A DNA stretch of 64,000 nucleotides. It comes from a virus. Position 1 is the stretch's first letter. Every line of letters begins with the position of its first letter. Below, piece by piece: positions 1,389 through 63,238 of this stretch. Where the stretch lies: positions 1 through 64,000 of the IMG/VR virus record IMGVR_UViG_3300009509_000006. One strand, 5' to 3'. The position numbers were made by a program, and so were the translations under genes. The notes below the pieces were generated by a model, which saw only the letters and a program-made list of their open reading frames with translations, made no database searches and was not told the DNA's origin.

Positions 1389-1706
1389 TCAGGATACGAC
1401 GGCCTTCTTGACACCGTTGCCGAGAGCGGCGTCCTTTCCAGTCTTCGCACCGACGATCCTACGCTTGAGCGGGTCGGCGTTTGTCTTGTAGTGGAAGACC
1501 ATGCTCTTCGTCACGCCCGTGCCCTTCAGAACGGGGGTACCGCCCTTCATGCCCGCGACCACGAAGCGCTTGCCGCCGACACCGGCCTTGCTTTGGCGCG
1601 CGAAGCTCAGGAACACCGATTGGCCCTTCTTGGCGCTCTTGAGAGTAGCCAGCACAGGGTCCTTACCCTCAAGCAACAGGCGCCCTTCCTGGATCATATT
1701 CCTCAT
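1389..1706 (-). CDS. Basic (Lys-rich) putative internal head protein with leader MRNMIQEGRLLLE
   Basis: GAGG RBS; leader shared with genes starting at 4848, 58637, 58902 and 59849. Confidence 0.75.
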   Translation of the reverse strand: MRNMIQEGRLLLEGKDPVLATLKSAKKGQSVFLSFARQSKAGVGGKRFVVAGMKGGTPVLKGTGVTKSMVFHYKTNADPLKRRIVGAKTGKDAALGNGVKKAVVS

Positions 1707-1720
1707 CGCGTCCTCTCGTA

Positions 1721-3280
1721 TCAGAAAGCAGGGAAAGCGTTCGAGACGGCAATGAAGTCCATCTCGTCCATCGCCGCTTGCAGAGCTCTCATGGCGTCAC
1801 GGACGCTCTTGGCGCTTTTGGCTTTCACCAAGGCTTTCCGCCACCCCTTCAAGCCACCATCGCTCGGGGCGGATTGGAGCAGGTCTTGGTCGGCGTCATG
1901 GAGGAGGCGACCAATCATGTTCGAGATACCGATGAAGTCCATTGCGTCCATCGCGTTCTGGATGTGCTTGAGCGCCACCCCCACCTTCACCCGCAACAGC
2001 GACGCGGCCTTGAGCTCACTCCAGAATTCCTTCTCGGCTCCAGGGGCAGGCTCTCCGAAGTCGCCACCCGGAGCTTCGATCAAGGCGCGAGCACGCTCGA
2101 GCAGGTCGGAACTCTCCTTCTTGACTTTGTGCTTCGACTTGCCCGTCCATGGCGTTCCGATCTGACCGGTCCTCTTCTTGCCCTTCCTGGGCTTCCTCTT
2201 CTGGCGGTAGTGCCGCAGGTAGCCGGCGACGGCCTCGGGGTCACGGACGTCCTTGCGGGCCTTGAGCGCCTTGAGCGCCTTCGTGCCCTTGAGCTGTTCG
2301 GTCTCGGCGAGTGGGGAGCCACTCGCATCGGTGTCTTCGGCGAGAGCCTGATCGATGGCATTCGAAATCACCATGAAGTCCATCGAATCCATCGCGCGGC
2401 CGAGGGCCTGCATTGCGGCCCGCACGCTCGTTGCCTTCTTGGCCTGGAGCAGGTTCTTGCGCCAGCTCTTCCGCTCGCCCTCGCCGGGCTCGCGCTGGAG
2501 CTCCGCCGCGGAGGACTGCAGCATGTGGCCGATCGCGTTCGAGACGGCGATGAAATCCATCTCGTCCATCGCGTTCTGGATGTGCTTCAGCGTCTCGGCG
2601 ACATTCGGGCGCGTGATGGCGGCCTTCTGGATGTGCGCCTTGAAGCGCTTTGCCGCTCCAGGGTCGGGCTCGTACATCTCGAGGGCCACGTTCTCGAGGT
2701 CTTGTGCGACGGCGTCGGCGTAGAGCTTCGCGAGCTCCTCGGGGCCCTCGACATGGTCGAGCGACCACTTGCCCGGGGACCAGGACAGGCCGCCGCCTCC
2801 CCCTCCACCCATCGTTGTCGTGCCGCCGCCCACCGTCTGGTAGACCTTCTCCTTCTCTTGCTCCTGCCCGAGCGTCGGTGTCACGTGCCACTTCGACTTG
2901 GCCTGGGCCTTCTCCTTCTCTTTGGCCTTCTTCTGCGCCCAGGTCATTGTCTGAGCCTTGGCCTGCTGCTTTTGCTTGGCCTTCTGGGCCTCTTTGGCAG
3001 CCTTCTCGACCTTCTCACGGGGGGCGATCGCCACCCACTTCACCGAACCCTTCTGGATCTGGAACTTGCCACCGAGGCCCTTGAGGAAGTTCTCGAGCAT
3101 CTTCCTGGAGCCCTTGATCGAATGGTAGATCTTGACGACCACGAAATTCTTCGGGTCGGTCCGGTGGGGCCTGTAGTGGATCCCCTTCTTGCCATTGACG
3201 TAGTTGACGATGAAGTCCTGGCCTTCCTTCGGGATCGTGGCCTCTCGGATGATCTTCGCCACGGCGGGATGCACGGGCAT
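1721..3280 (-). CDS. Multi-module putative internal head protein with four AMDxMDFxxxSN repeats
   Basis: AGGAGG RBS; 519 aa; duplicated two-repeat helical module; internal leader-like SDLLERARALIE. Confidence 0.8.
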   Translation of the reverse strand: MPVHPAVAKIIREATIPKEGQDFIVNYVNGKKGIHYRPHRTDPKNFVVVKIYHSIKGSRKMLENFLKGLGGKFQIQKGSVKWVAIAPREKVEKAAKEAQKAKQKQQAKAQTMTWAQKKAKEKEKAQAKSKWHVTPTLGQEQEKEKVYQTVGGGTTTMGGGGGGGLSWSPGKWSLDHVEGPEELAKLYADAVAQDLENVALEMYEPDPGAAKRFKAHIQKAAITRPNVAETLKHIQNAMDEMDFIAVSNAIGHMLQSSAAELQREPGEGERKSWRKNLLQAKKATSVRAAMQALGRAMDSMDFMVISNAIDQALAEDTDASGSPLAETEQLKGTKALKALKARKDVRDPEAVAGYLRHYRQKRKPRKGKKRTGQIGTPWTGKSKHKVKKESSDLLERARALIEAPGGDFGEPAPGAEKEFWSELKAASLLRVKVGVALKHIQNAMDAMDFIGISNMIGRLLHDADQDLLQSAPSDGGLKGWRKALVKAKSAKSVRDAMRALQAAMDEMDFIAVSNAFPAF

Positions 3281-3290
3281 GGTGCCTCCT

Positions 3291-3389
3291 TCAGAATCTG
3301 CGTGGGCGCCTGAAGTAGTACACGAGCGCAGCTGTGCATACGAGGCCCCAGACGAGCAGGAAGAAGTAGAATGTCGTTGTCTCGCTCAT
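3291..3389 (-). CDS. 32-aa single-pass membrane peptide (MSETTTFYFFLLVWGLVCTAALVYYFRRPRRF)
   Basis: Hydrophobic helix followed by an Arg-rich stop-transfer tail; fills the gap after the transglycosylase. Confidence 0.55.
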   Translation of the reverse strand: MSETTTFYFFLLVWGLVCTAALVYYFRRPRRF

Positions 3390-3426
3390 CCGGGCCAGGA
3401 TAGCAGCATCGCTTTCGTGTCGTCCA

Positions 3427-4341
3427 CTACTGGCCGCCCTCTCCGTGCACCTCGAGGAAGTCGAGCTCGCGTTGCAGCTCTTCGATCGACCACTCGCGCA
3501 GAGCTGCCTCCTCGTATGGCACCTCGTTCCGGTCGTAGGCCTCCATGAGATCCTTGCGCAGAGACCGTCGTTTCTTGCGCGCCGCGTGCTTTGCCAATGC
3601 CTTGGCCTTGCCATCGAAGTAGACATAGCGCTCCTTGCCGACAGCCTTGAGGTCTTCGGGCGAGATGTACGGATCGCGGAGCGAGGCCTTCACCTTGAGC
3701 ATCTTGCGCTGCGCGAAGCCGCACTGACCCTTGTAGCTGTTCCTGGCCTTCGGCCCACACTTCCAGTGCGCCATCCAGTCGTGCAGCTGCCCGGCGCACT
3801 TCTCGTGGCTCTCGATCGCGTGCTTCACCTGGAACGCGGCGACCTGGGTGTTGACCCAGGGGTCGTACAGATCGTCCGGCTCCCAGTCGGTACCGTAGAA
3901 CGTGCGGGCCGAGTAGATCCAGTCGGGCTTCTGCTGGAACAGCCCTCTTTCGCCACCGGAACCTGTGGCATCGGCCTCGTAGGTGATCGGCCTGTCGTAT
4001 TCCGGCATCTTTGCGAACGTGAAGTCGAACCTGTAGCTGCTGTGTTCCGAGATCAGCAGCGCGCCTAGATCGTAGGGGTCAATGTCGATCGCCACCGCGG
4101 CCTTGTACGTGTACCACCCGAACTCCGGGGGCACTCCCGCGCGAGCGAGTCGAGATGTAAACAACGCCCCGTCAAGCAGCCCCACGAGCGGGTTGTGCCC
4201 GCTCCGAACGAGAAGCGCCCGAACCACGTCCGCTGAGGGGCCACCCGCGCCACCCGAGCTCGCCCTGTCCTCGGCGAGAACAGAGCCCGAGCAAAGGAGC
4301 AGGAGCGCGACGAAACACAGTGATAGTGCTGACTTCCTCAT
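3427..4341 (-). CDS. Lytic transglycosylase (SLT/lysozyme-like) with signal peptide; candidate endolysin
   Basis: GGGAGG RBS; signal peptide MRKSALSLCFVALLLLCSGSVLA; SLT-like motifs LLISEHSS, GERGLFQ, DLYDPWVN. Confidence 0.75.
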   Translation of the reverse strand: MRKSALSLCFVALLLLCSGSVLAEDRASSGGAGGPSADVVRALLVRSGHNPLVGLLDGALFTSRLARAGVPPEFGWYTYKAAVAIDIDPYDLGALLISEHSSYRFDFTFAKMPEYDRPITYEADATGSGGERGLFQQKPDWIYSARTFYGTDWEPDDLYDPWVNTQVAAFQVKHAIESHEKCAGQLHDWMAHWKCGPKARNSYKGQCGFAQRKMLKVKASLRDPYISPEDLKAVGKERYVYFDGKAKALAKHAARKKRRSLRKDLMEAYDRNEVPYEEAALREWSIEELQRELDFLEVHGEGGQ

Positions 4342-4387
4342 TCGAGCCTCCCTGTCACGTTATCGGCTATCACGAGCCTGGTGCCCG

Positions 4388-4416
4388 GATATATCAGAAG
4401 TGACAGAGAGGGCCAA
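4388..4416 (-). promoter_or_regulatory. Candidate sigma70-type promoter upstream of the transglycosylase
   Basis: TTGGCC-17 nt-TATATC with TG extension, in an intergenic gap. Confidence 0.35.
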
Positions 4417-4422
4417 GCGGGA

Positions 4423-4848
4423 TCAGCGTTCGCGCCAGGCTTTGTCGACAAGCTCCGGGATCTTCTTCATCCGGATCTTGTTCACGGCGTCTTTGAGCCC
4501 TGCATTCGACAGCAGTGCGAGCAAATGTCGCATCACCTCGGGGGCGTTGTACTTGTTGAACGCCGGGGTCTTCGGTTTGCGCTCCAGGAGTGCTCTTGCC
4601 GCGGCCATGGGATCCACGCTCTCGGCTTTCGGAGGCTGCCCGGGCTCTTTCTCGTTCGCTGGTTTTCCGTCCTTGTCTTGCGGGGGCGGGGGTGGCGGGG
4701 TCTCGCCTTTGGGGATCTTGTAGCGCTTTCTGAGCTTCGGGACGATACTCCGGATCACGTCGATTGGCGTCTCGGGCACTTTGGGCTGCTGCTCCGCGTC
4801 TTGCTCCCTGGCGAGCAGCAGTTGTGCCTCATCGATCAGGTCTCGCAT
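4423..4848 (-). CDS. Putative internal head protein with leader MRDLIDEAQLLLA
   Basis: GGAGG RBS; shared leader; Pro/Lys-rich. Confidence 0.75.
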   Translation of the reverse strand: MRDLIDEAQLLLAREQDAEQQPKVPETPIDVIRSIVPKLRKRYKIPKGETPPPPPPQDKDGKPANEKEPGQPPKAESVDPMAAARALLERKPKTPAFNKYNAPEVMRHLLALLSNAGLKDAVNKIRMKKIPELVDKAWRER

Positions 4849-4879
4849 GATGCCTCCGGGGCGATGTCACGCGAGAAGT

Positions 4880-5428
4880 CTACTCTGTGGGCGTGTCGAA
4901 GTGTAGAGGGCATCTCGGCGAGTAGATCTCGCCGTTTCCAGGGACGAGATCCTCCTCGAAGTGCTTCTTGCGAGCCGTGTAGACGGCTGTGGCGCCGCAC
5001 ACGTCGCAGTAGGCCTCCCGGGCCACCGTGATCTGGTCGGCGTGGCACAAGAGCTCCGGGATGCCGTCCCACGGCGACCCGTTCCACAGGAGCGTCAGCG
5101 CGGCGAGCACAATCTCCTTGCCCTTGCGCCTGAGCATCAGCGCCACGTCGAGCACCCCGGGCAGCATCTGGGCTTCTTCGACGAGGAACAGGTCGTAGTC
5201 GTCCTGGATCTCGAGCATCTGAGCTGCGTGCTGAATCCGCATCGCCGGCCACGCACGCCCCGTGCGGCTCTTGAGCGCAGCCTCCTCGTCTCTTGTGTCG
5301 ATCCTGGGGCGGAAGGCCCCGATACGAGCTGGGTTCCCTGACAGTGCGCTCTCAGCTCGCCCGATCAGATAGTCCGTCTTCCCGCTGAACATCGGGCCCA
5401 CTACGACGTGAATCTTCCCCGCTTTCAC
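4880..5428 (-). CDS. tdk: Thymidine kinase
   Basis: GPMFSGKT P-loop, (D/E)EAQ motif, CDVC zinc site, YSPRC C-terminus; start reassigned to GTG 5428 after GGAGG. Confidence 0.95.
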   Translation of the reverse strand: MKAGKIHVVVGPMFSGKTDYLIGRAESALSGNPARIGAFRPRIDTRDEEAALKSRTGRAWPAMRIQHAAQMLEIQDDYDLFLVEEAQMLPGVLDVALMLRRKGKEIVLAALTLLWNGSPWDGIPELLCHADQITVAREAYCDVCGATAVYTARKKHFEEDLVPGNGEIYSPRCPLHFDTPTE

Positions 5429-33089: not shown

Positions 33090-33624
33090 CGCTCGCTTCT
33101 GCCTCTTCCTCGGCTATCCGCCTCTGCTTGATCGTCGGGCCGGGATGCACCCCCGTTGGGGCGCGCCCCTCGCCGACGTACATGGGATCCCCGTCTTCCA
33201 TGACGATTTCGCCTTGCTCCAGGGCCGCGCGGAGAGCTGCCAGGCGAGCGATCTCGGCCTGATGCTGCTTCTCCAACTCGTCGACGATACGAGCCAGGGT
33301 CTGAGCGCTCCCCATGGCCACGGCGCGCTTGTGCTCCGCCGAATCTTTGAGCGAGGCAACGCACCCCCACGCTCTGTTCAGGAACGTCTTCGCGAATTTC
33401 GCCGCTGCGATCTGCTGCTCCCCGTCCAGTCCCCCCAACTCTGTGTCCCGTTCTTCTTCGAGCACAGCGTGCAAGTCCTGGATGCGCTCCAGGGCCGTTT
33501 TGAAGCCCGCGACTTGGCCGTCTAGCCGCAGGAGTTGCCCCTCCACCTGGAGCTTCTGCTCATCGTACCTCTTCCCGGATTCTCTGAGCATCGCAAGCTT
33601 GATCTCGGTCTTCGCAGGATTCAC
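33070..33624 (-). CDS. Coiled-coil hypothetical protein
   Basis: AGGAG RBS; heptad pattern. Confidence 0.75.
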   Translation of the reverse strand: MNPAKTEIKLAMLRESGKRYDEQKLQVEGQLLRLDGQVAGFKTALERIQDLHAVLEEERDTELGGLDGEQQIAAAKFAKTFLNRAWGCVASLKDSAEHKRAVAMGSAQTLARIVDELEKQHQAEIARLAALRAALEQGEIVMEDGDPMYVGEGRAPTGVHPGPTIKQRRIAEEEAEASDGQNAG

Positions 33625-46127: not shown

Positions 46128-46331
46128 TCATCGTCGCCGGCGTCGAAGTCGTGCGCGGGACGCACGCTGCTGGTCCCGCTCTCGTTGGTCTGCCTCCACC
46201 AGAGAGCATATCAGTCTGTACCTGCGACCAGAAGGCATTCGTTTGACGGCTTCCTCTGTCTGGTTCACCCGCCCAATGAGGAAGAAGATCTCTTTTTCCA
46301 GCGAGCTTGCGACGCCGAAGGGAAGAAAAAA
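46128..46331 (-). CDS. -1 frameshift extension of the tail assembly chaperone (GT-like)
   Basis: Frame without its own RBS (FFLPFGVASSLEKEIFFL…MPSGRRYRLI…) entered at T TTT TTC. Confidence 0.7.
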   Translation of the reverse strand, partial: FFLPFGVASSLEKEIFFLIGRVNQTEEAVKRMPSGRRYRLICSLVEADQRERDQQRASRARLRRRRR

Positions 46332-47107
46332 CTCGGCTGCCCGGGATTGATGTCGAGCTCCCAGGGAATATTGCACCCCTGGCACTTGAGCTCCACCGTC
46401 GTGTCGACCCCGCCATCAACCTTGGCGAACTCGGCAGCGAGGTAGTCTCGGTCCTGCGAGTGCATGGCCTGCAGGTGCAACCGGTTGGGCGGCATGCCGT
46501 TGATGTCTGTGATCCGGAGCTGCAGCTCGACGCTGATCGGGGCCATGTCGCCGGAAAGCCGGTCCCGCTCCACCTCGGCATCCCCATCCACGCACTTGAA
46601 TCGGACCAAGTCTCTCGAGTACGGCAACCTGACCTCGTAGAGGCGCTTCATAGGGTCCGCCATTGGCACCACCGGCAAAAGCCCCAGATCGTAGTTGAAC
46701 GTGTTCATGTGCGAGCAGGTCGCCCTGGGGCACCTCTCGCGGAACGGGAACATATCGCCGTGCGTCACCCGGCGGATCCCGAAGAAAAGAAAGGTTCTGT
46801 CGCCAATAAGAAGCTTTCTTGTCAGCCCCTGAATCAGGCGCCTCTCCTCAATGTAGAGACCCTGCTCCGGGTTGCCCACCCTCTCGATGCACGCACCAAG
46901 CAGCAGATCCATCTTGCGATCGGCCGGCACGTGCTTCGAAGACAGCATGTCCTCTTCCACGCCTGTTGTTCCGCGCAGCTTCACCTCAGTGTGCAGCACA
47001 TTGTTCTCGTCAATGTAGCCACACGGCATGGTGAACACCCCGATGTCCGAGGACGGCTCCTTCAATTGGCTCTCGATGAGCCCTTCTACTGCTATCGTGT
47101 CAGACAT
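46265..47107 (-). CDS. Tail assembly chaperone/T4 gp26-like baseplate hub assembly protein
   Basis: EEDML…LLIGDRTFLFFGIR…CPRATC…DGGVDT…CQGC…SFFFP. Confidence 0.85.
   Translation of the reverse strand: MSDTIAVEGLIESQLKEPSSDIGVFTMPCGYIDENNVLHTEVKLRGTTGVEEDMLSSKHVPADRKMDLLLGACIERVGNPEQGLYIEERRLIQGLTRKLLIGDRTFLFFGIRRVTHGDMFPFRERCPRATCSHMNTFNYDLGLLPVVPMADPMKRLYEVRLPYSRDLVRFKCVDGDAEVERDRLSGDMAPISVELQLRITDINGMPPNRLHLQAMHSQDRDYLAAEFAKVDGGVDTTVELKCQGCNIPWELDINPGQPSFFFPSASQARWKKRSSSSLGG
46325..46331 (-). other. Programmed -1 ribosomal frameshift slippery heptamer TTTTTTC
   Basis: In-frame AGT TTT TTC (X XXY YYZ) joining ORF 46265-47107 to frame 46128. Confidence 0.75.
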
Positions 47108-47651
47108 TTCGCCCCCCGACCTCGTCCCAGGCTTCGAGCCACATCATGAGAAGGGCCTTGGTCGTCTCCGTCACCGTCAGGCCTTCGCCGCGCGCCAGCC
47201 CCTTGAACTGCATGTACGTGTCCTTGCCCACCCAGACGTTCACCTTCACATCCGCCTGGACATCCTGGTAGTTGACCAGGTCGCTGTACAGCTCCCGCTT
47301 GTCCACGAAGCGCACCATGAGATAGCGCACCAGGCTCGAGAGCGAGTTGTACCGGTTCTTGCCCTTCAGGACAGCGCGAAGGCGCTCGTACAACTCCCGG
47401 GACATGAAAAAATTCACAGCCCGTGACGGCTCCTTCTCGTTCGACGACAAGTCGCACGCGAAGTCGCAGGTGCGACACAGCAGAACCGAGTTCGACACAG
47501 CCACCTGGCCGCCGAGGTCCTCCGGCACAACCAGGCGCACGACCAGTCGATCCGTTTCCCCGCAGTTCACACAGCGCGACCCGTGATGGAGCCACACCGC
47601 CCGCTCGAACGGAATCCCGTTCGCCTCCAACACTTCAATTTCTTCTCTCAT
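47100..47651 (-). CDS. Degenerate HNH-like zinc finger fused to tandem ribbon-helix-helix-like domains; probable regulator
   Basis: RCVNCG…VVPEDLGG…SNSVLLCRTC with His residues missing; VNFFMSRELYERL…SLSSLVRYLM and VNVWVGKDTYMQFK…TVTETTKALL. Confidence 0.75.
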   Translation of the reverse strand: MREEIEVLEANGIPFERAVWLHHGSRCVNCGETDRLVVRLVVPEDLGGQVAVSNSVLLCRTCDFACDLSSNEKEPSRAVNFFMSRELYERLRAVLKGKNRYNSLSSLVRYLMVRFVDKRELYSDLVNYQDVQADVKVNVWVGKDTYMQFKGLARGEGLTVTETTKALLMMWLEAWDEVGGRNV

Positions 47652-47716: not shown

Positions 47717-47893
47717 CTATCGCCGCCTGCGTTTCTTGCGGGCTCGCTTCAAGCGCATGAACACGGACATGTCGTCGGGGTCGAGGATCCACGAGTCGGG
47801 CACACTTCGCAGAGGCGGGAAAGTGGCCTTTGTGAAGTAGCCCACGTTGGCGGTCGTGGTCTGCTCGCTCATGCGCCAGCGTCTTCGTGCCAC
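47717..47893 (-). CDS. 58-aa basic peptide containing a copy of the capsid protein N-arm (absent from the ORF track)
   Basis: MARRRWRMSEQTTTANVGYFTKATFPPLRSVPDSWILDPDDMSVFMRLKRARKKRRRR*; GTG 1 nt after the tube gene stop (alternative ATG 47872). Confidence 0.75.
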   Translation of the reverse strand: MARRRWRMSEQTTTANVGYFTKATFPPLRSVPDSWILDPDDMSVFMRLKRARKKRRRR

Positions 47894-47894
47894 G

Positions 47895-48659
47895 TCAACC
47901 CCCTGCGAGCGAGACCTCGGTGAACTGCTCGACCTCGATGTCGAGCTCCATGATGCTCACCTCGCTCGACATGGCATCGAAGTCGCTGGCGACCTTGTAC
48001 CGGGTCGGAATGCAACTCTTGAGCTTCCACGCTCGAGCGGGAAGGCGATCAACCTTCGCGCCCAGGCCTCCGAAGTCGAGAGCGGCGCCCAACGCCGTAG
48101 CTGCTCCAGTGAGTGTAGGGCCGCCGAAGAGCCCCGCCAGCAGGATCCCGAATCCGAGGCCCGCGTTGCCGAGCCCGTAGTGCGCGAAAGTCTGCACGAG
48201 GAGGAGGTCTCGGCGATACGTCACGCCGCCGATCCTCGGAAACCCGAAGAGGCCGCCTACAGAGGCAAGGGCGAGCGCAGCAGTTCCTACGTTCTCGCCA
48301 ATACCCTCGCTCAAGGCGCCGCCTCCGATCGTCAACGAGAGCCCGTACTGCTTCGACTGGAAGTCCTCGGTGTCGCCAGAGACGGCAGTCTTGATCCAGC
48401 GGTAGAAGTCGGAGTCGTAGAAGAGCGCGCCCCTCTGAAGCGTCATAGTGGACACGCCTGCCGCCTTGACGACCTTCCGCGGGTAGGGCCAGTTCCCTTC
48501 CTGGATGGTCTCGAACTCGACGTAGAGCTCGGGCGCAGTGATCTCAGAGAAGCCGAACAGGGGCGTGAATATGGGGAGCGCGAGCGCCTCGATCGGGGCC
48601 ACGTCAATCAAGTAGAACGGATACACCTGCAAGTGGTCTTGCAGGGCCGATCTGGTCAT
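47895..48659 (-). CDS. Tail tube-like protein 2 (gp19 family; tube initiator) with hydrophobic insertions
   Basis: GFSEITAPE…IQEGN…TLQRG…FYRWI…AWKL…PTRYKVASDFDAMSSEVSIMELDI. Confidence 0.88.
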   Translation of the reverse strand: MTRSALQDHLQVYPFYLIDVAPIEALALPIFTPLFGFSEITAPELYVEFETIQEGNWPYPRKVVKAAGVSTMTLQRGALFYDSDFYRWIKTAVSGDTEDFQSKQYGLSLTIGGGALSEGIGENVGTAALALASVGGLFGFPRIGGVTYRRDLLLVQTFAHYGLGNAGLGFGILLAGLFGGPTLTGAATALGAALDFGGLGAKVDRLPARAWKLKSCIPTRYKVASDFDAMSSEVSIMELDIEVEQFTEVSLAGG

Positions 48660-48677: not shown

Positions 48678-49232
48678 TCAGGGAGCGTACTCGATGCTCT
48701 CGACATTCTCGTAGGCGATGTCCAGCTCCTGGATCGAGACTTCGGACGAAGTGGCGTCGAGGTCGCCACTGAACTTGTGACGTGTCGGGAAGGACTGGTG
48801 CAGGATGAACTGCCGTCCCGTCCCGGCGTCCAGGTTGAGCTTCGTCTGGTTCTCGCCCCCGGCGCCCGGGAAGCCACGGCTCAGCGTGTTCTCGCGGTGG
48901 AACTGCGTGATGAGCACCTTCGCGCGGTACTCGCCCGATCCCTCGATCACAACACGGAGCCAGTCCCAGAAGGCCGAGCTCTGTCTGGTCACACCACGGC
49001 TGAATGTGCAATCCGACATGCTCGGCTTGCCCGGATACTTGCGGGTGTAGATGTCGGTCCCTTCGGAGTACTCGGCCGGCTCGACCGTGACCTCGGGCGT
49101 GGTGATTGCCGAGAAGCCCGCCTGCGGGTAGCCGGGGATGCGCTGGAAGTACAGGCGCTCCCCGATCCCGATGGCGTCCGCGTGGAACCGGAAGCCCTGA
49201 AGGAAATCGGAAGATTCTGGTCTCGACGACAT
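48678..49232 (-). CDS. gp19: Major tail tube protein (T4 gp19/Afp1 family)
   Basis: DFLQGFRF…AGFSAITTPE…EYSEG…KYPG…FSRGV…FWDW…GDLDATSSEVSIQELDIAYE. Confidence 0.93.
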   Translation of the reverse strand: MSSRPESSDFLQGFRFHADAIGIGERLYFQRIPGYPQAGFSAITTPEVTVEPAEYSEGTDIYTRKYPGKPSMSDCTFSRGVTRQSSAFWDWLRVVIEGSGEYRAKVLITQFHRENTLSRGFPGAGGENQTKLNLDAGTGRQFILHQSFPTRHKFSGDLDATSSEVSIQELDIAYENVESIEYAP

Positions 49233-49948: not shown

Positions 49949-52858
49949 TCAGGTCAACGTCTTCTGCGTGAATCGGAACCGCACGAACTCGGCAGGCTTC
50001 TGTGGCGCCAGAGCGATGTCAATGATCACCTGGCCAGCGTCGATGCTCTCTGGAGAGTTGTTCGTGCTGTCCACCGTGACGATGAAGGCCTCGGAAGGCT
50101 GGGCGCCTGCCAGGATGCCTTCGTTGAACAGATTGAGGAAGAAGCCCTCGAGCTGCGCCTTGATCCGGGTCCACAGGGCCGGGCCGTTGTTCTCGAACAC
50201 GATCCAGAACGTCGAGTTGTAGACGCTCCGCTCGGCAAACATGAACATCCGCCGCGTCGAAATGTAGCGCCAATCGCTCTGATTCGAGATCGTGCGAACG
50301 CCCCAGACAGCTCGGCCGGTCGCCGCGCTTGCGATGAGCGGGTTGATCTTGTTCGGGTAGACCGTGTTCCGCTCTTCGATGTCGGGCTCGGTCTCGAGAC
50401 CCGTGACGAAGCGGAGCTGGCCGTCGACGACTCCACCGGGAGCCTTGCCGACGTTGCGGTCGTTGTCGGTCCGCGCGTAGATCCCAGCGATGTGCCCCAG
50501 AGGCGGGATCAGAAGGTCTCGGTTGTCCGATAGCGGATCCGCGATCTTCACCCACGGCCAATACAGGGCGGCCCACTTCGAGAAGCGTTGGAGCGTGTAC
50601 CGGAACCAGCTGACCGCCTCTTGTGCGGTGAGCGCGGACGGAACGGCCAGGATAGCGAAGCGGTCGCCACCGTGCGGGAGCGCTTCCCGAGCGTCGCAGT
50701 AGTCGAGGATGTCGCCCGTGATCGTCGTGTCGCCGGCCCAGTCTGGCACGATCAACTGCAAGAGCTCGTCGACCTTGTTGAACGCGAAGATGCCTTCGTA
50801 GTTCGGGCTGAGAGTCGGGCTCGTGAACTGGTTTCGCCCCCACTGTGTCGTCGAAGTGAACGTCCCGTTCGTCCCTTCTGCGTAGCCCTTGGTCGTGTCG
50901 CCAAAGTCTTCGTCGTGCTGCGTCTCTTCGGGCTCGGTGTAGTAGTTCAGGACGGCGAGCGTCCCGTTCTTGATCGGGTGCCCGGCGACCACCGTCACGT
51001 CGATCAAGCCGCTCGAGTACGTGATCTCGTTCGTTCCGGCGGCATCGATGTCCCCGGTCAGATTGCCGGCCCCGTCATCGATGATCGTGCGAGTGCTGTC
51101 GTCCGTCGCCGACGTGTACGTGAGCGAGAAGGTGCGAGGCTGCACGGGGGCGTTTCCGACATAGTCCTGGATCGTTCGACCGCCCGTTGTCTCGTCCCCG
51201 CCGACCAGAACTCGATAGCGCGGGACAGCCTGGAGCTGCCCCGGAGCCTCGTTGCCTCCGGGCTCGTTGACCACGACCAGATCCGAGAGATCGTTGACCA
51301 CATCGGCGAAGAACTTGGTCGAGGTGTCGTCCGAGAAGTCGAGCTCTTCGTAGGGCTCGCTGATCGAGTAGTCCTGGAGCGAGCTGTTGTACTCCAGCAC
51401 CTGGAAGTCGAAGCGGCTGAACTGCCCGGTCTCCGCAGTGTAGTAGTCGACGTTGCCCTTCACACGCAGGCGCACGTCATTGCCCCACTCTCCACGAGAG
51501 GACGGGTCGAGGTCCCAGGCGTAGATGTTGTAAGTCCACAGGATCGGGCCGCCGTTCCCGGCGCCAGTGGGGCCAATGGGTGCCGTCGAGAAGTTGAGCG
51601 TGTACGACCCGTCGTCGTAGTCGACAACAGAGGCCGCGGCAACATCCCCTGTGATGTTCCCGGCACCATCATCCGTCGCGGTCTTGGTGTCGCTCGCGAG
51701 GTCATAGTCCGCCGTCACAAGCGAGTTGGCATCGATGGCCACGGCGGTGCGCAGAGACCACACACCGGTGCGGCAATCCATGATGGCGTACACACCCGAG
51801 GGAGGAGGTGTCGCAGCCGTCGCATAGGTCCAACGGTCGATCTTCACCGAAAGAACCGCTGTGCGAGGTGTTCCGCCTGCTTCCCACTTGAGGGTCACAC
51901 TCCCACCAAGGTAGGAGAACAACGCCTCGTCGAGACCCGGACCATCGACGCCTCCGGTCGGTTGCGTCACCGTGATCGCGCCACCGGTCGTGTTCTCGGC
52001 CCACGAGGTAACGTTCCCTGCCGTTCCGGGGTTCGTGTTGTAGATGTCGACCTGGGACAGGCTCGCGTTCTGCGTCGCGGACTTCAACGTGAGGCCGGAG
52101 GCCACACCATTGATCGCCGCACGCATGGCTTCGGCGACATCGTCTGTGGAAGCGACGGCGCTGATATCGACGGGGACGTTTCCAGCAGTCACCGAGGAAT
52201 CGTCGTCGAACTCGAACACGGTCGGCGTGTTGATCCCGTCGTCCAGCGTGAACGTATCACCATCGACGATCTGCAGAGCGCCGAACGCCGTGACGACCAT
52301 GCGACCGTCGGCACCTCTGCCGTCCGGGAGCTGTCCTCCAAACTTCGTGGAAGACCCATCCCCAACAACCGCACCAGTTCGGCCGCTCGCGTTCGACACG
52401 GCGCTCGTCGGCGACGACCCGAGCTCACGCCACCGAATCTCGACAGATTCGGGCACGATAGGGGTGTCGCCGTCATTGACTTTCAGCCCGGTTGTGATCG
52501 CGGTCTTCGAGAATGCGGTCGTGGTCCCGTCGCCCGTCTCAGCTTCGTAGTCGTATTGCTTCGACTGAATCTTGGCCTCGGCGAGCGTCGCGTCCCCTGG
52601 CACGACACGGACAATGTAGGCGCGCCTTCCTCCGTTCGCGAAGTAGGCCGCCATGGAATGGCCCAGGAAGCTCTCTTGCGTGAGCGCCCCGAACTTTCGG
52701 GTGTAGTCGTCGAAAGACGTCACCAGCGTTGCAAGATTCTCGGGCCCCTTGGGCGAGTAGCCGAGGCCGCCAACGGTGGAGGTCGAGACCCCCTGGATCA
52801 CTTGCACCTGGGACGGCACCTCTTCGATGAAGACGCCAGCACTCAGGATCTCTGCCAC
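49949..52858 (-). CDS. gp18: Tail sheath protein with large inserted domains
   Basis: SAGVFIEEV…YFANGGRRAYIVRV…AALYWPW…IPPLGHIAGIYARTD…VGKAPGG…VWGVRT…WRYISTRR…VFENN…KPAEFV. Confidence 0.97.
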   Translation of the reverse strand: MAEILSAGVFIEEVPSQVQVIQGVSTSTVGGLGYSPKGPENLATLVTSFDDYTRKFGALTQESFLGHSMAAYFANGGRRAYIVRVVPGDATLAEAKIQSKQYDYEAETGDGTTTAFSKTAITTGLKVNDGDTPIVPESVEIRWRELGSSPTSAVSNASGRTGAVVGDGSSTKFGGQLPDGRGADGRMVVTAFGALQIVDGDTFTLDDGINTPTVFEFDDDSSVTAGNVPVDISAVASTDDVAEAMRAAINGVASGLTLKSATQNASLSQVDIYNTNPGTAGNVTSWAENTTGGAITVTQPTGGVDGPGLDEALFSYLGGSVTLKWEAGGTPRTAVLSVKIDRWTYATAATPPPSGVYAIMDCRTGVWSLRTAVAIDANSLVTADYDLASDTKTATDDGAGNITGDVAAASVVDYDDGSYTLNFSTAPIGPTGAGNGGPILWTYNIYAWDLDPSSRGEWGNDVRLRVKGNVDYYTAETGQFSRFDFQVLEYNSSLQDYSISEPYEELDFSDDTSTKFFADVVNDLSDLVVVNEPGGNEAPGQLQAVPRYRVLVGGDETTGGRTIQDYVGNAPVQPRTFSLTYTSATDDSTRTIIDDGAGNLTGDIDAAGTNEITYSSGLIDVTVVAGHPIKNGTLAVLNYYTEPEETQHDEDFGDTTKGYAEGTNGTFTSTTQWGRNQFTSPTLSPNYEGIFAFNKVDELLQLIVPDWAGDTTITGDILDYCDAREALPHGGDRFAILAVPSALTAQEAVSWFRYTLQRFSKWAALYWPWVKIADPLSDNRDLLIPPLGHIAGIYARTDNDRNVGKAPGGVVDGQLRFVTGLETEPDIEERNTVYPNKINPLIASAATGRAVWGVRTISNQSDWRYISTRRMFMFAERSVYNSTFWIVFENNGPALWTRIKAQLEGFFLNLFNEGILAGAQPSEAFIVTVDSTNNSPESIDAGQVIIDIALAPQKPAEFVRFRFTQKTLT

Positions 52859-58638: not shown

Positions 58639-58902
58639 TCAGCCCCCTACTTCCTTGAGCTTCGCGGCCACTTCGGGGTCCTTGCCCCAGCGCTTCCTGA
58701 CAGCCGCCTTCACGGCAGGGTAGTCACTGGAGTCACCACGCTTCGCCTGGATGTAGGCGAGAGCGCGGATCGCGTGCTCCTGGTCATGGATCGGCCACCC
58801 CTTGCGCTCGGGGAAGACGAATGACGACTTTTTCATGCGCTCGCGCTTCCCTGGCGTGATCTCGTCGAGCAGCGCACGTCCTTCTTCGATCAGGTCTCGC
58901 AT
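58639..58902 (-). CDS. Putative internal head protein with leader MRDLIEEGRALLDE and DUF6582-like domain
   Basis: Start ATG 58902 overlaps the upstream TGA; SSFVFPERKGWPIHDQEHAIRALAY. Confidence 0.8.
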   Translation of the reverse strand: MRDLIEEGRALLDEITPGKRERMKKSSFVFPERKGWPIHDQEHAIRALAYIQAKRGDSSDYPAVKAAVRKRWGKDPEVAAKLKEVGG

Positions 58903-59849
58903 CACACAACTCCCATGTCCTGGAGCACAGTGACCACACCCTTCTTGATGCGGTTCTGGCTCTTTGGCGTGAGGTGTTTCTTGATCTCGCGCCATGTGTT
59001 GGATTGCCCGAGCAGAAACGTCACCGCCTTGCTCTGCGGCCACGCTACGAGTTTCGCTCTGTGCGCGCCAACCAGGTCCCGAACCTGCGCGGAAATCTCC
59101 TGCATGTAGGCCTTCACCTCTTCGGGCGAGTTGTAGTAGCGAGCCTGGCGCTCCTTCGCCTTGGCCTTCGCCTGAGCTCGCTGCTCTTTCGGACTGTCCG
59201 GCGGATGCAATCCCACCTTCGTGAGGGTCATCTTCAGCCGCTCAGTTGAGTCGCCGATCCCGAGCTCTTTTCGCTTCCGGGCGATCAGTCGGTGCGAGAC
59301 CTCGCCATAGCCAGCTGCCTTCAAAATCTGCGAGATCTGCCTATCCGAGAAGGGATGAACAGGGTTCTCCTGCTGGAGCAGCGCTACGATGTGACGCTCC
59401 AGGCTCTTCTTTCGCAGCACGTCCTTGGCGTGGGTGATCTCGTGCATGAGGGCGTACTTCATGGCGCCCTGAATGCTCGACATCTCGGTCCCACGCAAGA
59501 GCGGCACGAGCTCGCCGGCACCGAGATTTCCGTTCAGCATCATGTTGATGATTCGCTCTTTCGGCGCGTAGACGGCACCCAGAAAGAGCCCGCGCACGCC
59601 GGGCCTCTTGACGCTGATCACCGAGACCGGAATCTCGCGCTTCTTGCCCTTGACATCGGACACAGTGATCTTCTCGGTGGCCCACAGCTTGTCGCCGATC
59701 GGCTTGGTCGGTTGCACCCTCGCCATGCTCTGGAGCGCGGGCACGAACTGGCCCATGAGCCGCTTGACGAGCATCGTAACGACTTGGTCAGGCAGCTTGA
59801 TCGGGCGGGCTTCGAGGAGCTTGTGCCCTTCCGTGATCAGGTCTCGCAT
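58902..59849 (-). CDS. Putative internal head protein: leader MRDLITEGHKLLE, HEXXH zincin-like domain, inserted sigma-54 C-terminal DNA-binding-like domain
   Basis: LMHEITH…YYNSPEEVKAY; ENPVHPFSDRQISQILKAAGYGEVSHRLIARKRKELGIGDSTERLK. Confidence 0.8.
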   Translation of the reverse strand: MRDLITEGHKLLEARPIKLPDQVVTMLVKRLMGQFVPALQSMARVQPTKPIGDKLWATEKITVSDVKGKKREIPVSVISVKRPGVRGLFLGAVYAPKERIINMMLNGNLGAGELVPLLRGTEMSSIQGAMKYALMHEITHAKDVLRKKSLERHIVALLQQENPVHPFSDRQISQILKAAGYGEVSHRLIARKRKELGIGDSTERLKMTLTKVGLHPPDSPKEQRAQAKAKAKERQARYYNSPEEVKAYMQEISAQVRDLVGAHRAKLVAWPQSKAVTFLLGQSNTWREIKKHLTPKSQNRIKKGVVTVLQDMGVV

Positions 59850-59858
59850 GGCTACCTC

Positions 59859-59897
59859 AAACAGAAAGGCCGCCCACCCAGATCGGGGGAGCGGCCC
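59859..59897 (-). terminator. Intrinsic terminator after the major capsid gene
   Basis: GGCCGCTCCCCC-GATCT-GGGTGGGCGGCC stem followed by TTTCTGTTT. Confidence 0.75.
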
Positions 59898-59938
59898 AGT
59901 ACGACCGTGTCAATGGAACGACCCGAGACCGAGCCGCA

Positions 59939-61435
59939 TCAGATGTTGAGCACGCGGACCTGCCCGTAGTATTCGGCCCGAAGCAGCTTCTTCGCGTAGC
60001 GGGTACGCAGACCCTTACGGAAGCTCATGTCATTCGGATCCAAAAAGGTGGGCGTCACCTGCAACGGGACGTAGGGGGCCCAGACGAACCCGGCGTCCAA
60101 GTACGAGCCGCCCTTGAGGCCCAGCATCGCGAAGTCGGACGCGAAGAACGGGTCGACGTAGACGACCCACTTCCGCATCAGGGTGCCGGCCTTGTAGACG
60201 CCGAACTGGCCGTGCTGCGTCAGGGGGCGCGGCATGTCGGCCGGTCCGAGCGGGCTCTCGCCGCCGCTCACCCAGATCGGGCGGTAGTCGCCGTGAGTGG
60301 TCAGCTGCTCCATCAGAGCGCTGATCTCGGGCGAGGTCACAATCCAGTTCGCGGGCGCACGCAGGGTCCGCTTGTGGATCGAGTTCGACACCTGGGACAG
60401 CACGGTGACGAGCGACCGGAGGTGATCGATCTCGGCGATGCCGCTGGGCGGGATCCGATCGAAGGTTCCACCGCTCCCGGTCGAGGCCAGGAACAGGTCC
60501 TGGATGATCTCCCGGTCGATCTCGAGCGCCATCTCGCTCGCCGCTGCAGCGACCAGCTCCGTCTCGGCTTCGAGCCCCTGCAGGTTGCGCAGGTCCTCAG
60601 CCGCTTCCGAGCTCCAGAGAGCCTTGAGACGACGCGGGACCGCCTCGATGACGGCTTTCTTCACGTCGAGCTGCACTTCGGGCAGCTTGGTGTTGAGCTC
60701 GCCGTCGTAGCTGTAGTACATCTTGATCTGGTGGCCAGCCACGGGGTCGACGGCGAAACGCACACCCGCCAGGGCACCATTCGAGTAGTTCAGGGTGCCG
60801 GCGGTGAGATCGGTGCTGGTGTCCGCGGCACCACTCGCCAGGAACTTGCCCTCCTGAATCACGGACCCGGCCGCATCGAGGTCGCGGATGATCACGTCAT
60901 AACCGCGATCGGTACTCGGCTTGTGCACCGGAGTGAGAGCCAGATTCACACTGATCGGCACACCACTGGGACCGTAGTCCGAGCCGGTACCGGTGGCGAG
61001 GATTTCACCATTCACGAACTCCGAGCTGTAGTAGCGGTCGAAGTCGCGCGGGAACACGTCGCCGCGAGTCGTTTCCCCCTTGGTCGTACCGTAGACATAG
61101 TCCAGGTAGAACACGGCGCCCTGCGGCGCGGTCATGGGCTGCACCGAGACGATCTCGTTCACGATCAAGTTCGGGAACACACGGCTGAGCACCGGGAACA
61201 CGAATTTCGTGAAGTAGCCCACATTGATGGCCCTCGTCTCTTCGTTCATGCTACGAAGGTGACGGGCCTGGTTCTCGTAGAGCATCGCCATGCAGCCCCG
61301 AATGTAGCGCTCGTGGCGACAGCGATCCGGCATCCCTTCCAGAAGGGGTGCCCACTTCTCCACGTATGCGCCGACGAGACGGCGGTCGGCGATGGTGCCA
61401 CTGCTATCTTCGATCACAACTCGACGAGCTTCCAC
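59939..61435 (-). CDS. gp23: Major capsid protein, T4 gp23 family
   Basis: KWAPLLEG…ENQ, RVFPNL…IVSVQPMTAP…FYL, RRLKALWS…EIDREII, GFVWAPYVPL…KGLRTRY; GGAGG RBS. Confidence 0.98.
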   Translation of the reverse strand: MEARRVVIEDSSGTIADRRLVGAYVEKWAPLLEGMPDRCRHERYIRGCMAMLYENQARHLRSMNEETRAINVGYFTKFVFPVLSRVFPNLIVNEIVSVQPMTAPQGAVFYLDYVYGTTKGETTRGDVFPRDFDRYYSSEFVNGEILATGTGSDYGPSGVPISVNLALTPVHKPSTDRGYDVIIRDLDAAGSVIQEGKFLASGAADTSTDLTAGTLNYSNGALAGVRFAVDPVAGHQIKMYYSYDGELNTKLPEVQLDVKKAVIEAVPRRLKALWSSEAAEDLRNLQGLEAETELVAAAASEMALEIDREIIQDLFLASTGSGGTFDRIPPSGIAEIDHLRSLVTVLSQVSNSIHKRTLRAPANWIVTSPEISALMEQLTTHGDYRPIWVSGGESPLGPADMPRPLTQHGQFGVYKAGTLMRKWVVYVDPFFASDFAMLGLKGGSYLDAGFVWAPYVPLQVTPTFLDPNDMSFRKGLRTRYAKKLLRAEYYGQVRVLNI

Positions 61436-61466: not shown

Positions 61467-63017
61467 TCAATCCGCTCCAGGCGGCATCAACTCCTTCAGG
61501 GCTCCGAGGCCAACACCGAGACCATTGAAATCGGTGTCCTCACTGAGTGCTCTCCTGACAGGCGTATCCGGCCAGGGCTCCTCCTCGTCGAACGGTGTGT
61601 GTCCGACTCCGCCCCCCAATTGACGGCGAATCCGCGAAACCGTGGATTCGATGGCCTCCAGCGAACGCTTCGGAGGCCGGAACTGCTCGATGATCGAGTC
61701 GACGTCTTCGCGAGACGACAGGGCCGATCGGTCGAACACTTCCCTGATCTGCTTGGCCCTCGGGTGCTTGCCGATACGTCTCTCCCCGTACAGCTGAAGG
61801 CCCGTGATGTGCAGTGCTTCGGCAGACTTGTGTAGCGCGGTCTCCAGGTCGCGCACACGGTCGTGCAGCTGCTCGAACTGAGCTTCGGCGCGCTCGGTGA
61901 GCTCGCGGTGTTGCTCCTGCGCCTGTTCCTCCTCCAGACGCAGCTCTTCGAGATGCTCTTGCACAGAGGCGAGCTTCGACTGGAAGTCCGCCTCGGATTC
62001 GAACCGCGAGAGGTCTCCGACCAGTTGCCGCACACGCTCGGCATCCGGGTTCTGGTGCAACTCTCGCTCCATGTACCAGGCGAACCCGGCCACCTGGGCC
62101 AGAGTCACCAGCTTCTCGTTCTCTTCCTCGAGTTCGGCCACGCGGGCACGCACCTTGTCTCTCGACTCTCGCAGCCGAGCGATCTCTTCGTCTCTGCGCT
62201 CCAGGGCTTCGCGGGCTTCTCCGGATCGCATGAAAGGCGCGAGAGCCTCTCGGATCACGTGGAAGGCCTCGACCTTCTGGAGCGTCTCGTCGCTGCGCAG
62301 CTCGGCCCGGACGTCCGCCTCGACGACCGTGCGCAGCTCGGACATTCGCGTCAGGATGTCCGTGGCGATCTCGGCATTCATGTCGGGATCGCCCGAAGCG
62401 TTCTCTTCGGGAAGGAACTCGTCCCCTTCCGGGAACTCGATACCTTCGAACAGGAGCATGCTGTCAAGGTCGACACTCTCGCCGACCATTGTCGGGTAGG
62501 CGGTCTGATCCGCGGGGTCGGCAACGAAGTCGAATGCGATGAGCTTGTAGTCCTCCTGGACCACGTTCTCGCCGAACTCGTTTGGCTTCGTCGTCCCGTA
62601 GCCTCGGGACGAGATTCCGACCTTGCCTCCCTCACGCAGGATGGCTGCGAGATCCTTGCCCGCCGCCGTACCGAGGATCTGCGCCTCGCCGTACACGACA
62701 TCGTCGCGGACCTCGAGCTTCGTGATCAGGTGGCTTGCCCTGGACAGCTTCGTTTTGCCGTCTTCTGGATGATCGAGCTCGCCGTAGCACTTTCGCTCAG
62801 CAAGGCGCGGCAACAGGCGCTTGATCTCCCGCTCCCACAGAGCCTTTGGGTAGACGCGCTTATTTTCGGTCGGGATACCGGCGCGGGCGAACTCACCGCG
62901 CATGAAAAGACGCTTCGTTGCCACGTCTTCGACGAGCTCGAGCTCGGTCCCCTCGATCCACTCGATGAGATGATTGAGGTCGCCGACCTTCGTGTCTTCT
63001 GTGAGCTGCTTCGTCAT
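61467..63017 (-). CDS. gp21: Prohead protease (T4 gp21 type) fused to a scaffold-like coiled coil
   Basis: NKRVYP, GELDHP, SHLI, GISSRGYG, FDFVADP; Glu-rich heptads; start reassigned to ATG 63017 (MTKQLTE) in a TGATG overlap. Confidence 0.93.
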   Translation of the reverse strand: MTKQLTEDTKVGDLNHLIEWIEGTELELVEDVATKRLFMRGEFARAGIPTENKRVYPKALWEREIKRLLPRLAERKCYGELDHPEDGKTKLSRASHLITKLEVRDDVVYGEAQILGTAAGKDLAAILREGGKVGISSRGYGTTKPNEFGENVVQEDYKLIAFDFVADPADQTAYPTMVGESVDLDSMLLFEGIEFPEGDEFLPEENASGDPDMNAEIATDILTRMSELRTVVEADVRAELRSDETLQKVEAFHVIREALAPFMRSGEAREALERRDEEIARLRESRDKVRARVAELEEENEKLVTLAQVAGFAWYMERELHQNPDAERVRQLVGDLSRFESEADFQSKLASVQEHLEELRLEEEQAQEQHRELTERAEAQFEQLHDRVRDLETALHKSAEALHITGLQLYGERRIGKHPRAKQIREVFDRSALSSREDVDSIIEQFRPPKRSLEAIESTVSRIRRQLGGGVGHTPFDEEEPWPDTPVRRALSEDTDFNGLGVGLGALKELMPPGAD

Positions 63018-63238
63018 CAGTACCGCCGCCATCGAAACTGACCCCGTAGCGGGGTCCTATCCAGGAGACCGGGCTTCTTGCGAACAACCCGGGACTTGCG
63101 CTGTGTGGCCTTCTGGTAGTTGAAAGCGTCTCTCCTCCCACTCGAGGTGGACACGCGGCGTCCCCGCGTCGAATGCGAGAGCGTAGGCCTTGTCGGTTTG
63201 ATTCGCCGGCGCGCTACGATCCCGCGGTTCCGCCTCAG
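63017..63238 (-). CDS. Arg-rich 73-aa ORF without canonical start (CTG start or -1 frameshift extension); absent from the ORF track
   Basis: LRRNRGIVARRRIKPTRPTLSHSTRGRRVSTSSGRRDAFNYQKATQRKSRVVRKKPGLLDRTPLRGQFRWRRY*; CTGA overlap upstream, TGATG overlap downstream. Confidence 0.6.
   Translation of the reverse strand: MRRNRGIVARRRIKPTRPTLSHSTRGRRVSTSSGRRDAFNYQKATQRKSRVVRKKPGLLDRTPLRGQFRWRRY

Follow-up and report, generated by a model that had tools for sequence, protein, structure and literature searches.

The window analysed here covers the opening 64 kb of an IMG/VR viral contig of 98 kb, with 62% G+C and an estimated completeness of 57%; cultured phages are only distant from it, the highest capsid identity being 35%. 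On the minus strand, the structural genes follow the order prohead protease, capsid, neck and sheath, two gp19-family tube genes, a small ORF, an HNH-like gene, a gene for a 280-aa protein and a tape-measure-like gene. Part of the peptide encoded by the small ORF resembles the capsid protein around its putative maturation site, and the features on which this resemblance bears are as follows.

61467-63032, minus strand: prohead protease of the T4 gp21 type, 521 aa, with a long C-terminal extension (Peptidase_S77 5.7e-16; PHROG head maturation protease 1.8e-45)
59939-61435, minus strand: major capsid protein of the gp23 type, 498 aa (Pfam Gp23 6e-64; matches T4 gp23 structures in the PDB)
61178-61249, minus strand: capsid residues 63-86, MNEETRAINVGYFTKFVFPVLSRV, holding the putative maturation site and mature N-terminus
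49949-52858, minus strand: neck genes and a sheath gene
48678-49232, minus strand: tube-1, gp19 family
47895-48659, minus strand: tube-2, a second tail-tube-like gene, 254 aa (Pfam Phage_T4_gp19 1.7e-13), directly upstream of the small ORF
47899-47904, minus strand: Shine-Dalgarno-like AGGGGG, 5 nt 5′ of the small-ORF GTG, read from the sequence
47717-47893, minus strand: small ORF, 58 aa from the GTG at 47893 or 51 aa from the ATG at 47872, stop codon at 47717-47719
47801-47872, minus strand: segment of the small ORF resembling the capsid N-arm, residues 8-31, MSEQTTTANVGYFTKATFPPLRSV
47832-47845, matched by 61209-61222: 14-nt exact in-frame match between the small ORF and the capsid gene, encoding VGYFT
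47720-47755, minus strand: Arg/Lys-rich C-terminal tail of the small ORF, RLKRARKKRRRR, within a helix predicted by AF2 at residues 39-57
47100-47651, minus strand: 183-aa gene downstream of the small ORF, with a degenerate HNH-like zinc module and, after it, two ribbon-helix-helix-like (RHH) units
After the 280-aa gene, minus strand: tape-measure-like gene, 1431 aa

A single nucleotide separates the end of the tube-2 stop codon from the GTG start of the small ORF, whose GC3 of 0.80 is of the coding type seen in the neighbouring genes (0.79-0.85). Scanning the surroundings of the ORF revealed neither a promoter nor a terminator. The translation and its ending in an Arg-rich tail are as the sequence-only reading had given them. 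In the AF2 model (mean pLDDT 69) the basic tail is helical and residues 1-38 are predicted to lack regular structure, as expected for a short linear motif. The peptide had also been described as unannotated; this is not wholly accurate, as its 51-aa form had already been listed by a gene caller in a public protein collection.

Three further observations concern the surrounding genes. The extra C-terminal part of the prohead protease spans about 330 residues and is possibly a fused scaffold. Directly after the capsid gene, the 315-aa product of 58902-59849 (minus strand) matches a Sigma-54 DNA-binding domain (PF04552, E 2.6e-8). Just upstream of the tape-measure gene, an 85-aa Arg-rich ORF at 46128-46385 (minus strand) overlaps the 3′ end of the 280-aa gene (46265-47107) in another frame; it matches an ORF of about 49 aa in relatives, ‘MEVWH...RRRR’, and the arrangement recalls overlapping or frameshifted tail-chaperone pairs known from other phages.

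The likeness of the small-ORF peptide to the cleavage site and mature N-arm of the capsid, proposed from the sequence alone, is statistically real. BLASTP places peptide residues 2-38 on capsid residues 57-93 with 17/37 identical positions (E 2e-7), and the local score of 73 was reached by none of 3000 shuffles (23.7 ± 3.7; z about 13). When the 98-kb genome was searched in six frames with the capsid, the peptide was the sole match apart from the capsid itself (E 1e-3). The capsid does carry Glu at 65/66, as had been stated, and the putative cleavage motif reads M-N-E in the window capsid and M-S-E in the peptide. Window capsid residues 79-118 align with T4 gp23 residues 95-134, which places the shared segment, in T4 terms, where the N-fist ends and the N-arm begins. 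A PDB profile search did not bear out a link to the N-terminus of T4 gp24.

The 14-nt identity to which the sequence-only reading had drawn attention exists, and the peptide and capsid genes both read it in frame, but it is simply VGYFT written in preferred codons and has no independent support value beyond the protein similarity. Nucleotide identity is 59% over the 37 aligned codons, with many synonymous differences; since the synonymous sites have diverged, the likeness is kept at the protein level, which speaks against recent copying. A recent gene conversion or recombination scar was therefore rejected, the 14-mer being all that is common; an old patch conversion may have taken place. A capsid paralogue, fragment or pseudogene was likewise rejected: in addition to the low nucleotide identity, only about 30 residues match and Pfam Gp23 is not detected in the peptide. 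As for an internally deleted capsid paralogue, the second BLASTP segment that would suggest it pairs peptide 20-56 with capsid 450-486 (E 0.002) and does not rise above chance, its score of 35 being equalled by two unrelated open frames of the genome. This match to the capsid C-terminus was also discounted because the acidic-then-basic pattern is a trait of the family to which the peptide belongs.

Other capsid-like ORFs were observed in relatives. The closest by capsid (G001; IMGVR_UViG_3300017963_000204, loci L093/L094) has a 534-aa ORF at 59738-61342 on the minus strand in which capsid-like pieces are permuted, in the order capsid 271-294, 21-68 and 443-488, the best piece being 50% identical (E 3e-13); no counterpart of it was found in the window’s genome. 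Another relative (G002; IMGVR_UViG_3300028840_004580, locus L089) carries at 33244-33576, some 4 kb past its capsid gene in the downstream direction, a second ORF resembling capsid residues 134-244 (39%, E 1e-18), which suggests a duplicated insertion domain.

The small peptide has many relatives of its own size. When 1.84 billion representatives were scanned in full with the family HMM, 224 clusters were retrieved, counted at 50% identity with a cut-off of E<=1e-3, so that the family comprises at least 224 clusters; nearly all are 51-112 aa long, with a median of 70. A word-based search with a profile of nine members gave 50 clusters of proteins, 56-123 aa long and none of them named. Typical members are about 60-70 aa and belong to a lineage of uncultured myoviruses with gp23-type capsids. 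No named relatives were found in Pfam, PHROGs, PDB sequences, cultured-phage genomes or the ESM Atlas. The layout of the family comprises an N-terminal W-E-T-L-D helix, an E-Q-T-T-S-x-N-V-G-x-Y-x-V-P-L-G-x-P-L-R-R core, a Pro-rich stretch and, often, a basic tail, the full consensus being M..DWETLDTEKLLRRQ.EQ-H-E-Q-T-T-S-x-N/G-V-G-G/A-Y/F-x-V-P-L-G-x-P-L-R-R/P with the Pro-rich stretch after it and, in many members, a Lys/Arg tail at the end. The helix is not universal (84/153 members). A Glu stands one or two residues before the TTS core in 111/153 and is absent within two residues in 42/153, and the tail has a net charge of +4 or more in 71/153. Between close members, pN is 0.09-0.16 against a pS of 0.45-0.83 (dN/dS about 0.1), indicating strong purifying selection.

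A word-based search found no longer fused forms at E<=1, which is weak evidence. The full HMM search recovered a few proteins of 147-302 aa with an embedded motif, together with a 1104-aa repeat protein that is a false positive. Since the motif is embedded in larger proteins (277, 233, 147 and 112 aa), it behaves as a portable module would. One Lys-rich protein of 302 aa from the representative search (P0179) carries the motif twice, as E-A-T-G-A-A-S-A-G-G-Y-S-A-P-L and E-A-T-T-S-A-S-V-G-V-Y-D-A-P-I; it comes from an apparently A+T-rich phage, and the motif therefore reaches beyond the high-G+C lineage.

The position of the small gene is conserved. In 29/29 relatives examined, the order is tube-1, tube-2, small gene, HNH/RHH gene, 280-aa gene and tape-measure gene; the set combines 9, 15 and 9 loci, representing 29 distinct viral contigs of IMG/VR relatives collected through capsid- and tube-based searches. 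In one relative (G005) an extra ORF lies between the small gene and the HNH/RHH gene. Where there are insertions, the small gene usually keeps to the HNH/RHH gene and not to tube-2 (L081, L139). The gap between tube-2 and the small gene was observed to be an insertion hot spot, holding a 750-aa gene in L081 (4078-6330), about 3.6 kb in L139 (about 1400-5000) and several extra genes in L079 (4429-6192), where the motif stands at the N-terminus of a 277-aa protein. The HNH/RHH neighbour lacks the catalytic His, and its AF2 model (pLDDT 76) gives weak Foldseek matches to an HNH nickase and to TraY/VirC2. The neighbour is probably a DNA-binding protein and not a mobile homing endonuclease. A homing-endonuclease scar was rejected as the origin of the small ORF, the HNH-like neighbour being conserved in position in all relatives, degenerate, and accompanied by RHH units.

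The window copy is the lowest-scoring member of the family, and its core is a mosaic. The first half is of the family type (EQTTTANVG, identical to several members), followed by a capsid-type YFTK..FP.L in which the near-invariant P and G of VPLG give way to K-A-T-F-P. It has no W-E-T-L-D helix, its N-terminus reading VARRRWRMS, and it retains the acidic stretch and the basic tail of the family. A family profile built from eight members with the window excluded (A4) matches the 98-kb genome only at 47777-47890 on the minus strand (E 1.1e-4). Synteny, coding-type GC3, purifying selection within the family and a family-profile match confined to this place together show, at the level of sequence, that the small ORF is a genuine small gene and a divergent ortholog of a widespread, uncharacterised family. 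The sequence-only reading had allowed that the ORF might be a non-conserved recombination scar; what was found is a conserved position and a family under selection.

The window copy lacks two family features that are otherwise near-invariant and could therefore be non-functional and decaying, or it could be a non-functional mosaic produced by illegitimate recombination with the capsid gene. The missing W-E-T-L-D helix, the replaced P and G of VPLG and the low profile score would fit a loss of function, which we nevertheless consider improbable: the frame is open, with a start 1 nt past the tube-2 stop, an SD-like AGGGGG and coding GC3 periodicity, and the acidic stretch and basic tail are kept. 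Moreover, the synonymous divergence from the capsid gene shows that the patch is old, although at the protein level it is still intact.

The resemblance to the capsid is not confined to the window. With the window excluded from both sides, hhalign aligns the family with the capsid N-arm in 29 columns free of gaps (E 4.4e-6); when capsid residues 1-110 are the target, the match falls on capsid 64-93 with an E of 2.3e-6, and the two alignments span 29-30 ungapped columns. The family match hence starts at the putative maturation-site Glu and runs to RR-x-FP. The capsid consensus in these phages is L-N/T-E-E-T-R-T-V-N-V-G-S-F-T-K-F-I-F-P-V-L-R-R-V-F-P-N-L. When the family HMM was run on 40 related contigs, 29 gave a match. 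In the 23 relatives with a capsid gene, the capsid N-terminus was the HMM’s only match besides the small gene, 12 of them showing both and 11, whose tail region is missing, the capsid N-terminus alone; in three further contigs the small gene was the only match. Likeness to the capsid N-arm is thus a family-wide trait that extends beyond a single ORF (profile-profile E 2e-6 to 4e-6).

Two elements of the earlier proposal of an N-arm mimic did not extend in this way, even though the sequence-level likeness on which it was built proved family-wide. The M-x-E cleavage site is not a family feature, P3 usually being Gln (Q-H-E or similar) rather than Leu, Ile or Met. Co-variation with the cognate capsid, which had been suggested as a check, was not found, the window peptide scoring 66 against its own capsid and 69 against that of another phage. 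The window copy is the most capsid-like member compared (14/27 identical to its own capsid, against 4-11/27 in 12 other phage pairs), and it alone carries the hydrophobic F-x-x-F-I-F residues of the capsid, which are absent from the family. The contigs of the two nearest relatives (capsid core NVGYFTKFIFPVLTRV, 75% identical in the capsid) end before the tail-tube region, and the co-variation comparison therefore covers more distant phages.

We tentatively favour, at clearly less than an even chance, the reading that the small protein imitates the capsid N-terminus and shares its partner in head assembly. Its disordered core would act as a short linear imitation of the capsid N-terminus and engage that partner during head assembly, which would bring the small protein into the prohead. 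There the S77 protease might cut after the conserved Glu (in the window Glu10, M-S-E|Q), and the leftover basic peptide (in the window 48 aa, starting QTTTANVGYFTK) would stay with the DNA. The S77 protease gene adjoins the capsid gene, and T4 gp21 is known to cleave after Glu, at I/LxE motifs and more weakly at xxE (PMC12991175). In the T4 prohead the N-terminal region of gp23 faces the scaffold core: it lies inside the unexpanded head, probably touching that core (PMC9546572). The frequency of a Glu before the TTS core, the strongly basic tails, the AF2 prediction of an unstructured 1-38 followed by a helical tail, and the portability of the motif in larger proteins are all in keeping with a protein targeted to the prohead.

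Several observations sit less well with prohead targeting. The gene is always found in the tail cluster beside a DNA-binding protein, outside the head module; P3 is usually Gln and not Leu or Ile, and the Glu is missing in about a quarter of members. The similarity continues for about 28 residues past the scissile bond, more than recognition by a protease needs. Finally, the family outside the window copy lacks the capsid F-x-x-F-I-F residues, and cognate co-variation was not found.

The length of the similarity is better explained if the small protein is a shell-binding surrogate of the N-arm, docking in the groove meant for a neighbour’s N-fist or N-arm, for example at portal-vertex sites, with or without cleavage. 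It would then cement the shell or lock the head to the tail, with its basic tail touching DNA or acidic surfaces. The similarity does cover the entire mature N-terminus to RR-x-FP and not the cleavage site alone. In T4 the N-fist (gp23* 66-91) makes inter-capsomer contacts after expansion (PMC7136217), and the five copies that face the portal are disordered (PMC7136217; PMC9546572). The window copy possesses the hydrophobic positions of the capsid, and a gene in the tail operon suits a component delivered at head-tail joining. Most members, however, have Y-E-V-P-L-G-x-P where the capsid has F-T-K-F-I-F-P and would be a poor match for the pocket that receives the capsid segment. Co-variation with the cognate capsid was not found, and once the T4 head has expanded its N-fist is on the outer face, which offers no obvious target to a DNA-binding tail. 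We rank docking on the shell close behind prohead targeting, since it accounts better for the residues past the cut and poorly for the lost hydrophobic ones, and regard it as fairly unlikely in its own right. In its most general form, proposed on sequence grounds, the whole family would consist of free-standing mature capsid N-termini, trans-acting ‘N-arm’ peptides that fill capsomer grooves (for example around the portal) or time the expansion of the lattice. This, too, we judge unlikely.

None of the roles suggested by the sequence-only reading (portal, DNA tether, protease or decoy) explains the strict place of the gene in the tail cluster beside a DNA-binding protein. The synteny would be explained best if the small protein belonged to the tail module or to the handling of DNA ends, its capsid likeness being a relic, either of a partial duplication that took in the 5′ portion of the capsid gene or of a gene-conversion patch within the lineage. 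It might then work with the HNH/RHH protein, for instance as the partner of a regulator or as a short basic peptide that binds DNA or serves as a pilot. The neighbour’s predicted tandem-RHH DNA-binding fold, the frequency of basic tails in the family, and the persistence of the small gene beside the HNH/RHH gene despite insertions (with the exception of G005, where an ORF intervenes) would all agree with such a role. A mere relic should drift, however, and conservation in the family is highest precisely in the capsid-like core; in the window’s lineage the sequence has shifted toward the capsid and not away from it. We consider this tail or DNA-end role unlikely, giving it no more weight than the family-wide N-arm peptide.

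Least probable in our view, slightly behind a loss of function in this copy, is a role in counter-defence or protease modulation, in which an abundant look-alike would soak up a sensor of capsid N-terminal peptides or of protease activity, or would temper the protease itself. Hosts do sense the T4 capsid and prohead-protease activity, and CBASS CD-NTases are activated by gp21 cleavage (PMC12991175). The ORF of permuted capsid pieces in the closest relative hints at a reuse of capsid fragments within the clade. A catalytic sensor, though, would not be stopped by a competing substrate, no defence context is known, and synteny within a structural module conserved across many phages is unlike the variable islands typical of anti-defence genes.

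Small phage proteins are mostly unannotated, and here a 58-residue ORF leads to an undescribed family that numbers at least 224 clusters, keeps a fixed synteny, is under strong purifying selection and has a core statistically similar to the mature N-terminus of the capsid. If the core uses the partner of the capsid, whether scaffold or protease or the N-arm groove, phages would have turned a segment of the capsid into a portable address or plug, and this would offer a handle on two matters in T4-type heads, the recruitment of proteins other than the capsid and the completion of the portal vertex with its symmetry mismatch. Were the trans-acting N-arm reading true, the family would represent a new class of capsid accessory that mimics the capsid’s own arm; and if the likeness is a mere relic, it is still a new conserved component of the tail cluster.

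Adenovirus pX/mu and the C-terminal peptide of pVI are small precursors that are cut by the virion protease and yield basic, DNA-associated peptides. They are alike in concept only, a functional analogy, as the viruses and the sequences are unrelated. Relative to the N-fist/N-arm of gp23-type capsids, the similarity extends over 29-30 ungapped columns, with 14/27 identities in the window copy, but the family consists of small proteins without the HK97-fold body and the relation at the DNA level is limited to a 14-mer. The nearest known kind is that of the small protease-processed prohead proteins of T4-type phages. T4 IPI-III, gp67 and gp68 are small prohead proteins with a capsid targeting sequence that are cut by gp21 (PMC9026906; PMC5694885). 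Like them, the members described here are small proteins of phages with gp23/gp21-type heads, in which the S77 protease could remove a short N-terminal segment that has Glu at its end, and charged peptides would stay in the head. They differ in having no sequence similarity to the T4 proteins and in their location, the T4 genes lying in or near the head module and the family genes in the tail cluster. Furthermore, the targeting sequence of the T4 internal proteins is unlike the gp23 N-terminus, whereas the core of this family resembles that of its capsids.
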